Of a stretch of DNA of 64,000 nucleotides, positions 2,298-16,466 are shown one piece after another. The notes under the pieces were generated by a model. It was not told the origin of the DNA. It was given only the letters and a program-made list of their open reading frames with translations, and ran no database searches. The stretch's first letter is position 1, and every line of letters starts with the position of its first letter. Source of the stretch: a candidate division WOR-3 bacterium (lineage in GTDB: Bacteria > Hydrothermota > 32-111); contig JBDRZU010000001.1 in assembly GCA_039804105.1 (NCBI GenBank), positions 544,001 through 608,000 of the forward strand, given 5' to 3'. The position numbers and the translations under genes are program-made.

Positions 2298-3638
2298 TTA
2301 TACAACACCCTGATCAATCATAGCATCAGCAACTTTCTTAAATCCTGCAATGTTTGCTCCGTTCACATAGTTTCCAGGCGTTCCATACTCTTTTGCTGCA
2401 TCAACACATGACTGATGTATTTTGACCATTATCTCTCTCAATCTTTTATCTACTTCCTCTCTTGGCCACTGTAATCTCATTGAATTCTGTGACATCTCAA
2501 GACCACTTGTTGCAACTCCACCTGCGTTAGATGCTTTACCTGGTGAATAAAGTATGTTGTTGTTAAGGAATGCTTCCACCGCTTCAGGTGTTGAGGACAT
2601 ATTTGAACCTTCAACAACACATTTGCATCCATTCTTGATCAATGTCTTCGCATCGTTTCCATCGATCTCATTCTGGGTTGCACAAGGAAGTGCAACATCA
2701 ACTTTAACTTCCCATGGTCTTCTGTTTTCAACAAATTTCACTTTGAATTTATCAGCATAATCTTTAACACAATCCCTTCCACTTGCTCTCATCTCAAGCA
2801 TATAATCTATTTTTTCACCTTTTACTCCATCTGGATCATAGATATATCCATCTGGTCCTGAGAGAGTAACAACTTTTGCACCGAGTTCATTTGCCTTTAT
2901 CGCAGCACCCCATGCAACATTACCAAAACCACTGATCGCAACCGTCTTTCCTTCAAGTGAATCCTTTTTCGTCTTCAACATCTCTTCAGCAAAATAGACA
3001 ACACCAAATCCTGTTGCTTCAGGTCTTATCAAAGATCCACCCCAGTTCAAACCTTTACCTGTTAAAACACCTGTAAACTCGTTTTTCAATCTTTTGTACT
3101 GACCAAACATGTATCCAATCTCTCTGGCGCCAACTCCAATATCTCCTGCTGGAACATCTGTATCAGCACCAATGTGTCTATAAAGTTCAGTCATAAATGA
3201 CTGACAGAACCTCATAACTTCACCTTCAGATTTTCCTTTGAGATCAAAATCGCTTCCACCTTTACCACCACCCATTGGAAGTCCAGTTAAGGAGTTTTTA
3301 AAGATCTGTTCAAATCCTAAAAACTTTAAAATTGAAAGTGTTACAGAAGAATGGAATCTTATTCCACCTTTGTAAGGACCAAGTGCTGAGTTGAACTCAA
3401 CCCTGTATCCTCTGTTGATGTGGATCTCTCCCTTATCATCTGTCCATGGAACCCTGAAGAAAATTATTCTTTCTGGTTCAACTATTCTTTCAAGAATTCT
3501 GTACTTTTTGTATTTTGGTTCTTTATCCATAACAAGTGATAAAGATTCTAACACCTCTGTAACCGCCTGAATGAACTCTTTTTCCCAGAAGTATCTCTGT
3601 TTTACTTCTTCTATTACCTGTGCAACATAACTATTCAT
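2298..3638 (-). CDS. gdhA: Glutamate dehydrogenase copy 1, NAD-type cofactor motifs
   Basis: Intact GPYKGG, GGGKGG and DVPAGD motifs. [10 protein letters not shown]...TLSGPDG resembles the Clostridium symbiosum NAD-GDH. Confidence 0.95.
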
Positions 3639-3678
3639 TTTATCCTCCTGAATATGTTAAATTTGTAAAAACAGCCGT

Positions 3679-3706
3679 ATTTTACACCATTAAAATTAAA
3701 AGTCAA
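3679..3706 (-). promoter_or_regulatory. Sigma70-type promoter for gdh copy 1
   Basis: TTGACT-N16-TAAAAT on the minus strand. Confidence 0.6.
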
Positions 3707-13431: not shown

Positions 13432-13487
13432 AATTCCTCCTTATTATAAAAATTAAAACATACGGGGAATTTTTGTCAAGAAAAAAT

Positions 13488-16466
13488 TTAATCGGTTTTT
13501 ATTATGGCTCCTTTTCCTCTTTTACCATCAATCAAAACTTTTAAAGGTTTTTCAAATTCAAAATGTAATATTGTATCGTTCAATTTTTTGATATTTTTCT
13601 CTTTAAACAGAAGATCCCAATCGATAAAGGAATCCGATCTTTTATGGCTAAAAATAGTTAGATAGAACACATTCATCGTTACAACATTATGAAAAAAGTG
13701 TGATCCGAGTGAGGGTTCTATAAGCATATCTTTCATCTCGATCTCAACTATAACTTTCACATTTGAAATCGACGACCATAAAACAGGTATCCCTAAAAAT
13801 GGGTCCTTTGTTCCCCATCTACCTGGTCCTACGATTATGTATTTTTTACCTTTTTGTCCAAAATCTCTATTGATCTCTTCGATCAAAGGCACAAGTTCAA
13901 CACTTTTCATCCTATCAAATTTTTCAGGGTTTACAAGGATTATATCATTAATGTTATCTATAAAACCGTTCCCCATCGCATTATCGGAAAAGAAGAGAAT
14001 TTTTTCTCTTGGGATACTTTCAATATCAACTTCAACCTCTGAGTTTTTTCTGATGATGGGTTTTATCTGTAAGATATAAAAAGTCATCTTACGATTTTCA
14101 TCAGGGTTCAAATCAACAGCAAACTCTATTTCACAGGGAGATCCAATAGCGAATTTTATAATCGCACTTACCTGATTCAATATTTTTGAGAGAGGGAAAT
14201 ATTCATATTTGATTATTGAGTTGAAGTTTATCACAAGTGGACCTTTCGCAGAAAGATCATCAGTCAAAGTCCCATTGAAAACATCAAGTACAGATCCAAT
14301 ATAGTTTAAACTTCCATTTTCCCTCGCAACATTTATATCTACAAGTTCAAGGGTTGAATTGTCACCTTCAATAAGATTAAAATTTTTTCTATCACCAAGG
14401 TTTATAGCATAAAAGAATTTTTGTGTTTTGTTGTTTATGTTTATATCGATTTCAGGATATTTGGGACAGAACCTAAAAGAATCGTTTCCATCGATAACAT
14501 ATTTGCCAAGTCCAACAGCAACCTCACATATACCATCCTCTCTTTTAAGATGGGAAATCGGATAATAGTTATCCGACTGCATAACACCTGAAAAAGATGG
14601 ATAATAATATTTCCCGTAATTATGTCCAACAACTTCCTGAATTATGACAGCCATCTTTTCCTCTTCAATCTTGTAATTTATCGCGTTAAAATATGCCCTT
14701 GCTGATGGTGAGAATACAGAAGAGAAAACAAGTTTTATAGCATCCTCAACATCCTTCATCCTCTTCTCAAAGTCGTCATCGTTGTTAGGAAGCATATATG
14801 TTTCAAAAACTCCCGAAAATGATTGGGAGATTGAATCTTCAAACAAACTTGAAGATCTTATCGCTATTGGTCTTGTAAAACTTTTTAGTTTTTTTCTTAA
14901 CTTGTACAAAAGTTCATTTGATAATTTCCCTTTTAAGAATCTCTTTCGCAATTTATTGTAATCGTTTTCCCTTAAAATGTAATAGGACAGATTGTTTTTC
15001 TCTATAAAGTTTGAAAATTCTTCAGAACCTATAAGCATAGTTTTTGGAACAGTTATTTTTACATTTTCAAATGAATTAAAAATATCGGTGTTTTGAAGAA
15101 TATTGTTTACAAAAGCGATTCCTCTTCCCTTTCCCCCAAGAGTTCCATCAGCAATTTGAACTATCACCTGTTCATCTTTTTTTAGATTTTCAGAATATTT
15201 TACAACTTTTCCCTTTATCGATTCCTTATCAATATCAAGTGTTATATCTATAAGATATTTTCTCAACTCCTCTATCGATTTAAAATCTGAAACTTTCAAT
15301 TTCTGTAATTTTTTTGCTATTTTGATCTCACCTCTTGCCATAAGCCATGCTGAGAACTGGTTTAAATTCGCATGGAAAACTAAAGATTCCGATGGAATTG
15401 TTAAAAGAATTTTTCTGAAAGTTTCAATGTTGCTCGCTTTGACTATTTCCTGACCTTTTCTATCCTTAAAAACGAATGAACCAAAGCCAAGGTTGTTGAA
15501 AATAAAATTTCTTAACTCTTGACTCAATTTATCACTGTTTTTGTTTATGAATGGGACTTTCAACTCTTTCGCTTTTTTTAAATTTTCCTTTTCAAAAGAT
15601 TGTAAAAGACATGGTAGTTCAGGCATCGATTCCTTTACAAACTTAATAAGTTCATAACCTGCATTATAGTTTGTTGCATTGTTTTTTGGAAATTTCATAT
15701 CTGAGATCACAGTTAAAAGATTCTCTCTATACTTTTCAAAATAAAAAATTGCATCCTCATAATTCGTTGCAATTATTACTTTTGGTCTTGCTCTCAAACG
15801 GAGTAGTTTTTTCATATCATCAAGTTTTTCCTGTATTATCAAACGCTGCGTCTGTTTTAGAATCTCAGTGTAAAGTATTGGAAGGTACCTCGATATATAC
15901 CTTATAGAATCTTCAACAAGGAGTATAACTCTCACATTTCCTATCAGAGTGTCCCTTTCGATGTTCTTTTTGTCCTCAACATATTTTATCATAGCAAGAA
16001 AAACTTTTGAATCACCGTTCCATACAAAAACAAGGTCCTTATCCTTATCTTTTTCGAGTTGATCTTTAATCAGTGGTATCTCTCCGTTGTCATTTAACAG
16101 TATAACTATCGGTATATCTTTGTTAATACTTCTTATCTTTTCTTTTAACTGGTAGGGAGACATTCCATCAATCCTCATTGTCAAAATTACCATATCAAAA
16201 TGTTCTTTTTTTAACCATTCACATGCCTCTTCACCATTTATAGCATTTGTGACTCTCGGAGCATCGGGTAAGGAAAGTTTATGATACTCTCCAAAAATTC
16301 TTTCAGCTAACCTTCCCTCCTCTTCAAGGATGAAACCATCGTAAAATGTCGCAACGAGTAAAATCTCTTTGACTTTGAAAGTTGAAAGATCATGGAAAAT
16401 TTCAATGTTGTTTTTGTAGGATGTATAAGATTGAACAAACTTTTCAACTATCTGTTCCCTGTCCAT
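13488..16466 (-). CDS. Receiver-domain + PPDK_N (PEP-synthase ATP-grasp) protein
   Basis: Two REC-like regions (ILLVATFYD; ILLVEDS...ISDMKFP), then GGKGRG, AIRSSSLFEDS, MAVIIQEVVG, GLG and EIEFA. No recognisable pyruvate-binding TIM barrel. Confidence 0.85.
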   Translation of the reverse strand: MDREQIVEKFVQSYTSYKNNIEIFHDLSTFKVKEILLVATFYDGFILEEEGRLAERIFGEYHKLSLPDAPRVTNAINGEEACEWLKKEHFDMVILTMRIDGMSPYQLKEKIRSINKDIPIVILLNDNGEIPLIKDQLEKDKDKDLVFVWNGDSKVFLAMIKYVEDKKNIERDTLIGNVRVILLVEDSIRYISRYLPILYTEILKQTQRLIIQEKLDDMKKLLRLRARPKVIIATNYEDAIFYFEKYRENLLTVISDMKFPKNNATNYNAGYELIKFVKESMPELPCLLQSFEKENLKKAKELKVPFINKNSDKLSQELRNFIFNNLGFGSFVFKDRKGQEIVKASNIETFRKILLTIPSESLVFHANLNQFSAWLMARGEIKIAKKLQKLKVSDFKSIEELRKYLIDITLDIDKESIKGKVVKYSENLKKDEQVIVQIADGTLGGKGRGIAFVNNILQNTDIFNSFENVKITVPKTMLIGSEEFSNFIEKNNLSYYILRENDYNKLRKRFLKGKLSNELLYKLRKKLKSFTRPIAIRSSSLFEDSISQSFSGVFETYMLPNNDDDFEKRMKDVEDAIKLVFSSVFSPSARAYFNAINYKIEEEKMAVIIQEVVGHNYGKYYYPSFSGVMQSDNYYPISHLKREDGICEVAVGLGKYVIDGNDSFRFCPKYPEIDININNKTQKFFYAINLGDRKNFNLIEGDNSTLELVDINVARENGSLNYIGSVLDVFNGTLTDDLSAKGPLVINFNSIIKYEYFPLSKILNQVSAIIKFAIGSPCEIEFAVDLNPDENRKMTFYILQIKPIIRKNSEVEVDIESIPREKILFFSDNAMGNGFIDNINDIILVNPEKFDRMKSVELVPLIEEINRDFGQKGKKYIIVGPGRWGTKDPFLGIPVLWSSISNVKVIVEIEMKDMLIEPSLGSHFFHNVVTMNVFYLTIFSHKRSDSFIDWDLLFKEKNIKKLNDTILHFEFEKPLKVLIDGKRGKGAIIKTD

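Follow-up and report, generated by a model that had tools for sequence, protein, structure and literature searches.

A conserved sigma-54 cassette with a twin-cysteine protein and two putative glutamate dehydrogenase pseudoenzymes in a candidate division WOR-3 bacterium

What might explain why a bacterium with two complete glutamate dehydrogenases (GDHs) also carries, in one operon, two GDH-like proteins that lack the catalytic residues? The locus lies in the window, a 64,000-nucleotide stretch of a candidate division WOR-3 genome (contig JBDRZU010000001.1, forward-strand positions 544,001 to 608,000; positions below are those of the window), where genes for a cytoplasmic histidine kinase and an NtrC-type activator precede a sigma-54 promoter and a three-gene operon encoding a 105-amino-acid (aa) cysteine protein, Cys105, and two degenerate GDHs, pGDH_B and pGDH_A. 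Glutamate synthesis is the entry of nitrogen into biomass, and how it is controlled has been worked out for only a handful of model bacteria. We favour, with moderate confidence, a reading in which the locus is one conserved regulatory cassette plus neighbours, not a ten-gene machine, and in which the operon would yield a non-catalytic regulatory assembly.

The closest described system for the enzymes is the Thermus thermophilus hetero-hexamer of an inactive regulatory GdhA and a catalytic GdhB (PDB 3AOE), in which a leucine site is formed partly by a C-terminal R...[Y]P tail, according to excerpts of its description (PMC9570180). Relatives of the window resemble Thermus in pairing a short-type GDH with an inactive paralogue (10/10 second copies), and their R-G-I-[FY]-P tail matches the R, the aromatic residue and the C-terminal P of the leucine site as excerpted (PMC9570180). 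Unlike Thermus, the window has subunits that are both dead and have lost the tail motif, in an operon that is predicted to be sigma-54 dependent and is headed by a protein of the four-cysteine (Cys4) type. The loss of the catalytic lysine in the relatives is probably independent of that in Thermus, because a relative's dead copy is nearer to the GdhB-length chain than to the other chain.

For the regulation, the nearest parallel is Geobacter, where gdhA is RpoN-dependent and bound by GnfM of the GnfL/GnfM system, as the excerpted account has it (PMC2995071). As there, the kinase gene adjoins that of a REC-AAA+-HTH_8 activator, and a -24/-12 promoter with an upstream element precedes a GDH gene. 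A PAS domain is reported for GnfL, whereas the sensor of the window kinase matches no Pfam family. The locus also departs from NtrB/NtrC-type control: no PII was detected in the window's genome, which is about 85% complete (gene negatives in this genome are to be read against that figure), the activator falls under the cut-offs of the named equivalogs, and a Cys4 protein is the invariable first gene.

In Bacillus subtilis, RocG and GudB have a trigger-enzyme role and rocG is controlled by RocR and SigL; the title of PDB 7MFM describes a GudB-glutamate synthase counter-enzyme complex. The Bacillus GDHs are comparable in that a GDH fold acts through protein-protein contacts and a GDH gene is under sigma-54 control, and unlike the window's copies in that they are active moonlighting enzymes and not proteins without catalytic residues. 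Word searches of open-access text, which do not prove absence from print, returned no account of the Cys4 family, of the sensor domain in the kinase, of the cassette taken as a whole or of an operon with both GDHs dead, and nothing relevant on inactive GDH paralogues beyond Thermus. An earlier, sequence-only reading of this DNA had supposed the full arrangement to be undescribed; in the literature searched this holds for the whole and not for its elements, dead GDH subunits being known from Thermus and sigma-54 control of gdhA from Geobacter.

The operon, its promoter and its degenerate GDHs

The ten contiguous genes reported in the sequence-only reading, four of them for GDH-fold proteins, are confirmed as open reading frames (ORFs) at the coordinates it gave, with overlaps of 10 nucleotides (nt) between the NfnB and kinase genes, 4 nt between kinase and activator and 4 nt between pGDH_B and pGDH_A. 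The cassette comprises the following features.

9491..11209, minus strand: cytoplasmic histidine kinase (HisKA/HATPase_c domains)
8139..9494, minus strand: NtrC-type activator with REC, AAA+ (Sigma54_activat) and HTH_8 domains
8110..8136, minus strand: TCTCCCCATTGAGGAGAAAATCCCCAC, candidate binding element for the activator, some 80-115 nt before the sigma-54 promoter (genus conservation)
8018..8033, minus strand: sigma-54 -24/-12 promoter TGGCAT-N5-TTGCT, TGGCATACTTATTGCT
7669..7986, minus strand: Cys105, 105-aa twin-Cys4 protein, first operon gene (no Pfam or NCBIfam family)
6433..7662, minus strand: pGDH_B, very divergent putative GDH-fold pseudoenzyme of 409 aa, second operon gene
5222..6436, minus strand: pGDH_A, putative GDH-fold pseudoenzyme, third gene of the sigma-54 operon

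Gene identities were assigned from Pfam and NCBIfam searches. pGDH_A gives weak ELFV matches in Pfam (E 1.2e-9 and 5.2e-6) and matches solved short-type GDHs in the PDB at E 2e-15. pGDH_B has no Pfam or NCBIfam match, and its single sequence reaches PDB GDHs at E 1.5e-3 at best; when a profile of six orthologues was compared with the profile of the relatives' GDHs, hhalign returned 99.3% with E 2.8e-20 over 345 columns. The AF2 model of pGDH_B (pLDDT 82.3, pTM 0.84) was compared with solved structures in Foldseek, where all the listed PDB matches are GDHs (TM 0.70-0.82), 7mfm_A being the top match and 3aoe_D having the highest TM-score, 0.82.

For GDH residue roles we assume those of K89, K113, K125 and D165 in Clostridium symbiosum numbering, and take K125 to be the catalytic lysine. 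The catalytic-lysine motif GGGKGG, kept in the neighbouring canonical enzymes GDH1 and GDH2, has become VNGSFSS in pGDH_A and FGGSTLG in pGDH_B, and the substrate-lysine motif GP[YF]KGG is lost in both, with NDTFSN and ETDVTS in its place. The joint alignment reads NDTFSN, TIMFS, NGSFSS, FSSDLNS and GFGEKP in pGDH_A, and ETDVTS, SLKYS, GGSTLG and TINKRS in pGDH_B. The Rossmann GxGxxG is reduced to GFGEKP in the former and lost in the latter (TINKRS); the PAPDVNT aspartate is retained in pGDH_A (FSSDLNS), and the alignment at that point is ambiguous in pGDH_B. The C-terminal R-G-I-[FY]-P tail motif is lost in both operon copies. On the strength of the profile comparison, the model and the motif alignment, both proteins are predicted to have the GDH fold without the catalytic and substrate lysines, and to judge from these sequence comparisons they are almost certainly not GDH enzymes.

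Loss of catalytic motifs has not been accompanied by loss of selection. In comparison with the nearest genome, the ratio of nonsynonymous to synonymous substitution rates (dN/dS) is 0.149 for pGDH_A, 0.080 for pGDH_B, 0.056 for Cys105 and 0.004-0.029 for the neighbours, with unsaturated dS (0.43-0.63) for the two GDH-like genes. Both frames are intact in 6/6 carrier genomes, which span two genera, even where identity falls to 25-27%. The substitution ratios and intact frames indicate that both dead copies are under purifying selection and are not decaying pseudogenes. The motif losses agree with the sequence-only reading, which had called the proteins dead. At E<=1e-3 pGDH_B matches 7 proteins among 1.84 billion representatives, the distant ones being GDHs where viewed full-length, and the invariant residues of its family include H67, N71, E87, Y100, E348 and R354. 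In a quick tree, pGDH_A joins the dead second-position copies from the same family at a fork without resolution, and pGDH_B sits on a very long branch, where long-branch joins are flagged.

The -24/-12 promoter that the sequence-only reading had placed before the operon is unique in the window and conserved in the genus. A search for the strict motif TGGCAY-N5-TTGCW over the 64 kb, with shuffled controls, found TGGCATACTTATTGCT as the sole match, with 0.06 expected and at least one match in 6/100 shuffles; there is no second -24/-12 site in the window. The Cys105 start, with an AAGGAGG ribosome site before it, follows 32 nt downstream, and the promoter is kept in 5/5 genomes of the genus (G000-G004, that of the window being G000), with TTGT at -12 in G004. 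The genome encodes rpoN (G000:C1:400837-401313) and seven strong sigma-54 activators. The activator of the cassette matches its Pfam domains at E 2.7e-72, 7.9e-27 and 1.8e-9, carries a GSFTGA loop and the Walker A sequence GESGTGKE, and lies under the cut-off of every listed NCBIfam equivalog (best TIGR01818, 413.9 bits versus 558.6). No hydrophobic segments were found in the kinase. From the architecture and its conservation, the kinase very probably acts on the activator, the activator on the sigma-54 promoter and the promoter on the operon.

The candidate element at 8110-8136 is conserved in the genus, and TCCCC/GGGGA-rich elements were spotted by eye upstream of the promoters at other loci. 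The pattern GGRGA-N5-TCCCC was dropped as a regulon probe, as it matched inside the nfnA coding region (13294-13308) alone; the element before the sigma-54 promoter, with its shorter spacer, escaped it.

The cassette outside the genus and its payloads

A cross-phylum survey was made with the Cys105 alignment on one genome per species; the scan returned 473 candidate stretches, 426 of which encode a relative, and the counts given here refer to the best 80 loci, with 84 Cys105 copies. The record titles name TA06, Zixibacteria, Planctomycetota, Thermodesulfobacteriota, other Deltaproteobacteria, Ignavibacteria, Spirochaetota, Verrucomicrobiota, Acidobacteriota, KSB1, Calditrichaeota, Fibrobacterota and others. 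The conserved core runs from cytoplasmic kinase to NtrC-type activator, sigma-54 promoter, Cys105 and glutamate-forming enzymes. Of the 67 copies with at least 3.6 kb of upstream sequence, 53 have the kinase gene followed by the activator gene immediately before them in the same orientation, and 6 have the activator in another pattern, five of these with a GDH between. Within 300 nt upstream of Cys105 the strict -24/-12 motif occurs in 36/83 windows versus 24/7798 in the background, and a relaxed motif in 49/83 versus 55/7798.

The window's own phylum gives the same picture. Cys105 is present in 41/200 genomes and 25/90 genera, and regulators stand upstream of it in 28/28 labelled loci among the 30 best (the activator in 27, the kinase of a divergent pair in one), the own-genome locus L101 being left out and L130 having no labelled upstream gene. 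Kinase, activator, Cys105 and GDH-like genes persist outside the genus in three genomes of the same family (G007, G008 and G009) and in one of another family (G020). The gene-neighbourhood survey thus bears out the sequence-only reading in one respect, that activator, sigma-54 promoter and the operon of Cys protein and GDH-like genes form a conserved unit. The cassette is widespread in many phyla of mostly uncultured bacteria, with a sensor domain and an eight-cysteine module outside known families.

Which enzymes follow Cys105 elsewhere? Where 1.5 kb or more of downstream sequence is available (73 copies), the first gene is NuoE/F-like in 45, an x1 GDH (a short-type, Thermotoga/Pyrococcus-type GDH at the first position after Cys105) in 24, dead GDH-like in 2, nfnAB in 1 and unlabelled in 1; both dead GDH-like payloads belong to the window's genus. 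In the 30 best loci of the phylum it is an active x1 in 23, dead and of the pGDH_B type in 6 and unreadable in one. The x1 GDHs are 70-86% identical among phyla, and outside the genus and its sister genus (G008), second-position copies aside, the lysine at the catalytic position is kept in every GDH scored. By contrast with the first-position enzymes, the second-position copies lack it in 10/10 cases (GGASGG, GGSMGG, SGSAGG, SGAAGG and GGAMGG at L025, L028, L029, L031, L032, L057, L074, L076, L080 and L084, L029 and L031 being almost the same); in most of them the GP[YF]KGG lysine is missing too, and GFGNVG is mostly retained. Such an active-plus-dead pair of the same subfamily is encoded in G007, G009 and 8 other loci. 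In x1 proteins as in their dead partners, the C-terminus reads R-G-I-[FY]-P. Loci with both copies dead were found in G000-G004 and G008 only. The window is then the extreme of a graded series, from active GDH to active GDH with a dead partner to two dead partners, a natural system for asking what role non-catalytic GDH subunits have after catalysis has been handed over.

The alternative payload, by Pfam, consists of a NuoE-like 2Fe-2S protein, a NuoF-like protein often fused to a GltD/NfnB-like part, a Fer2_4/Fer4 protein and a partial Glu_synthase protein of about 540 aa. No amidotransferase gene was seen among the four-gene examples (L037:10041-16755, L044:10170-15376 and L079:10194-16665), and judging from its domains this payload may form an ammonia-dependent, NADH/ferredoxin-linked glutamate-forming complex. 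It is reminiscent of Stn in combining NuoE-like, NuoF-like and GltD-like parts, as described in excerpts of the Stn article (PMC7483475). It differs from Stn in that GltD is fused to NuoF and not to NuoG and in that a Glu_synthase-domain protein follows, which is absent from Stn in the excerpted description (PMC7483475). Both payloads, each with its own Cys105, occur at L027, L085 and L088. At the last of these a second Cys105 stands directly before nfnA-nfnB (L088:9959-12697), downstream of a Cys105-headed operon with NuoE, NuoF and glutamate-synthase-like genes, an arrangement from which it follows that each enzyme unit can carry its own Cys4 protein.

Cys105 is built of two G-L-C-x2-C-x5-C-x12/13-C-E-E-[FY] units, the second of which ends the protein as GVWHCEEY, and its eight cysteines are invariant in 74 sequences, from which we infer that it binds metal. 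Its family counts 3267 clusters at E<=1e-3; the 120 listed are all without Pfam domains and named hypothetical at most. The alignment profile has 0 matches to PDB sequences at E<=10, and the clusters obtained from the ESM Atlas were all unnamed, labelled 'hypothetical protein'. WhiB-like [4Fe-4S] proteins and Zn(Cys)4 redox switches are small four-cysteine units tied to transcription control, and Cys105 resembles them, in cysteine spacing only, by units that include C-x2-C-x5-C. It differs in the order of the cysteines, in its duplication, in the CEE[FY] endings and in having no Pfam, NCBIfam or PDB sequence matches.

Longer relatives of Cys105 put the module next to both enzymes and signalling domains. 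Of 55 such proteins, 26 are fused to NuoE-like PF01257, either as the whole module (13, N-terminal in the three inspected) or as a single C-terminal repeat (13); in 5 a receiver domain stands at the N-terminus, 9 carry three repeats, and 12 have an N-terminal domain homologous to residues ~217-340 of the window kinase (E 7e-21 to 3.5e-9). Across 42 kinases, conservation in the sensor half is highest in this stretch, which has an invariant E-R-x-K-E-x2-C and matches no Pfam family. At L012:400-1932 (G019) a 510-aa protein carries one Cys4 repeat N-terminal to an intact x1 GDH, with a sigma-54 activator encoded downstream; G037 has a candidate frame of the same kind, 518 aa long. Fusion of the Cys4 module to NuoE-like subunits, an active GDH, receiver domains and a homologue of the kinase sensor, as read from these sequences, is new here. 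A metagenome scan gave a sole full-length match (L141:2227-3036), a fusion of sensor domain and twin-Cys4 module directly after a glutamate-synthase-like gene; as this is one locus, no general rule was drawn from its placement. Extra Cys4 ORFs also follow the glutamate-synthase-like gene at L143, L144 and L147.

Possible functions of the operon and rival explanations

The question of what the dead subunits do is bound up with the two canonical enzymes next door.

2298..3638, minus strand: GDH1, canonical GDH of about 450 aa with all catalytic motifs (Pfam, NCBIfam, motif alignment)
3797..5143, plus strand: GDH2, canonical GDH, divergent from GDH1 (Pfam, NCBIfam, motif alignment)

Both have full ELFV_dehydrog_N and ELFV_dehydrog domains (E 1e-52 to 4e-93), exceed the NF006929 cut-off and keep GPYKGG, FKNS, GGGKGG, AGDIG, G[FS]GNV and NAGGV. 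They share 69% identity, with the differences densest in the coenzyme domain, and their best PDB matches are chains named NAD-specific GDH for GDH1 and NADP-specific GDH for GDH2. Two canonical GDHs stand beside the operon in G008 and the window's genus; G005, G007, G009 and G010 keep an active x1 and have one canonical GDH each, on another contig. No active partner of the pGDH subfamily was found in the window's genome, where the other ELFV genes are GDH1 and GDH2 only. This distribution is suggestive, and no more, of catalysis having been handed over to a duplicated canonical pair while the old subunits were kept for a non-catalytic role.

An inducible non-catalytic assembly seems the most likely product of the operon, because both positions are dead, both are under selection and catalysis has apparently been taken over by the canonical GDHs. 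In the mechanism that we propose, the cytoplasmic histidine kinase would phosphorylate the NtrC-type activator, which would open the sigma-54 promoter at 8018-8033 and so express Cys105, pGDH_B and pGDH_A; across phyla the same cassette would control enzymes making glutamate from 2-oxoglutarate. In this genus and its sister genus catalysis would have passed to the canonical pair, one NAD-like and one NADP-like, and the Cys protein and pseudo-GDHs would form an assembly that senses or regulates glutamate and NAD(P)H metabolism. Since the Cys4 module is naturally fused to enzymes and signalling domains, Cys105 is proposed to contact both the GDH-fold proteins and the sensor domain of the kinase. 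Given these fusions and the Thermus analogy, there is about an even chance that the three operon products assemble. That they regulate GDH1 and GDH2 directly is rather unlikely, and feedback on the kinase or activator equally so. The payloads found elsewhere, enzymes making glutamate from 2-oxoglutarate and NADPH modules, point to nitrogen/carbon status or the NAD(P)H/ferredoxin redox state as the signal.

A bolder version, to which we give a rather low probability, treats the twin-Cys4 protein as a metal-binding adaptor of a new type. It would physically tie glutamate-forming and NAD(P)H-linked enzymes to the sigma-54 two-component switch that controls them, and the GDH subunits of the window would now be dedicated signalling pseudoenzymes. 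The module would dock on the enzyme, as the GDH and NuoE-like fusions suggest, and on the kinase sensor, as the sensor-homologue and receiver fusions suggest, and the kinase would respond to the condition of the enzyme, or to redox or metal status, instead of sensing a free metabolite. If the Cys module does link enzyme and kinase, it would add a new route by which two-component systems sense metabolic state.

The sequence-only reading had instead proposed an integrated ten-gene redox and nitrogen module, in which dead subunits would bind to or mix with GDH1 and GDH2 and both Nfn and the REC-PPDK_N protein would be working parts. The synteny of the whole array in 4/4 other genomes of the genus speaks for it, as do the overlap of nfnAB with the kinase gene, the recurrence of Nfn or NuoF-GltD modules with the cassette, the respective NAD-specific and NADP-specific nearest chains of GDH1 and GDH2 and the presence of a canonical pair beside the dead pair in both dead-pair genera. 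Against this, GDH1, GDH2, nfnA and the REC-PPDK_N gene each have a sigma-70-like promoter of their own and the -24/-12 site is single, the REC-PPDK_N gene lies elsewhere in 5/5 loci inspected outside the genus, and the dead copies, ~30% identical to GDH1 and GDH2 and with short-type GDHs as best PDB matches, belong to a different GDH subfamily, so that mixed hexamers are not an obvious expectation. We regard the integrated module as unlikely. Its suggestion that the dead copies retune GDH1 and GDH2 finds no support, and REC-PPDK_N drops out as a part; Nfn keeps an intermediate standing, as Nfn-type NADPH modules recur beside the cassette but classical nfnAB does so in 4/80 loci.

Could the GDH-like genes be functionless relics, decaying since the canonical enzymes took over and transcribed only through their position behind Cys105? 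Their nonsynonymous evolution is 5-10 times faster than that of the neighbours, all catalytic motifs are gone and pGDH_B is almost without relatives; yet intact frames in 6/6 genomes, dN/dS of 0.08-0.15, tight start/stop coupling and a confident model of pGDH_B as a complete GDH fold (pTM 0.84) make this very unlikely. It is scarcely more probable, and in our view quite unlikely, that the pseudo-GDHs are neo-functionalised enzymes for another reaction or ligand, served by Cys105 as an Fe-S electron carrier. The 26/55 fusions of the Cys4 module to NuoE-like 2Fe-2S proteins, the eight invariant cysteines and the invariant residues that the pGDH_B family has of its own fit such a role, but pGDH_B has no dinucleotide glycine motif, Pfam and NCBIfam searches found no new cofactor motif, and in most lineages the Cys protein heads operons of a standard NAD(P)-dependent GDH, an enzyme that requires no electron carrier.

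Several observations weigh against the non-catalytic regulatory assembly or parts of it. The strict promoter was not found upstream of 47/83 Cys105 copies, and 8/67 copies show neither upstream pattern. The AF2 model of Cys105 from the 74-row alignment has a pLDDT of only 54.7, and because of this low confidence metal binding is read from the eight invariant cysteines only; a poor single-chain model would be expected for a metal-dependent fold. pGDH_B occupies the position of the active first-position GDH elsewhere, its descent from such an enzyme being read from gene order. That a pair of canonical GDHs goes with dead copies is not a statistically independent observation, because it compares two genera with three in one family. 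In the 85%-complete genome neither a PII gene nor a convincing large subunit of glutamate synthase (GOGAT) was found; there is one glutamine synthetase, and the sole Glu_synthase match over the cut-off is weak (G000:C2:154947-155270, 25.6 bits, in a 489-aa frame). The locus or part of it is present in five DNA runs labelled hot springs metagenome, and no RNA run containing it is listed.

Neighbouring genes

The remaining features of the array, which is syntenic in its entirety in 4/4 other genomes of the genus, are these.

2273-2246, minus strand: terminator-like hairpin of GDH1
3706-3679, minus strand: sigma-70-like promoter of GDH1
3737-3765, plus strand: sigma-70-like GDH2 promoter, TTGACT-17-TATAAT
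5172..5196, no strand: terminator-like hairpin between the converging GDH2 and pGDH_A genes
11200..12600, minus strand: NfnB, GltD-like NADPH subunit, over the TIGR01316 cut-off; its stop overlaps the kinase start
12604..13431, minus strand: NfnA, FAD/NAD-binding subunit with 2Fe-2S, over the NF004862 cut-off
13450..13479, minus strand: sigma-70-like nfnA promoter (TTGACA, about 17 nt, TAATTT), conserved in the genus
13488..16466, minus strand: REC-PPDK_N protein, 992 aa (Pfam, NCBIfam)
16512-16484, minus strand: sigma-70-like promoter of the REC-PPDK_N gene

NfnA scores 418.8 bits against the NF004862 cut-off of 220 and NfnB 612.8 bits against the TIGR01316 cut-off of 471.75, and on these scores an NfnAB-type transhydrogenase is predicted to be encoded in tandem. 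Because there is no gap before the kinase and a conserved TTGACA-type promoter precedes nfnA, the nfnA, nfnB, kinase and activator genes probably form one sigma-70 unit in this genus. The four loci with classical nfnAB near the cassette are L021 and L022 (this genus), L080 (convergent) and L088, and NuoF-GltD fusions lie near it in many others; the link of the cassette with NADPH-supplying modules is recurrent, not universal. The nfnA promoter region (13450-13479) is nearly invariant in the genus, and the TTCCCC in its spacer resembles half of the TCCCC-rich element. Weakly, this half-site could be read as an autoregulation site; autoregulation through it is not claimed, its conservation being partial.

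The REC-PPDK_N protein combines a partial receiver, a weak DUF5752 match and PPDK_N (ATP-grasp-like), with no phosphohistidine or phosphoenolpyruvate-utilising domain. It occurs in 16/40 relatives, in two families of the class, and at the five loci inspected outside the genus it is on other contigs beside unrelated ORFs, away from Nfn, kinase and GDH genes. Since it is adjacent in this genus only and has its own sigma-70-like promoter, it is not counted in the system. Beyond it, ORFs 17906-18742 (278 aa) and 18743-21316 (857 aa) have no Pfam match over threshold. At the other end of the cluster an hsp20 gene (1711-2169) adjoins it beside GDH1 in this genus, and in another genus of the family hsp20 lies directly upstream of the kinase (L019:8965-9432; L032:6164-6631).

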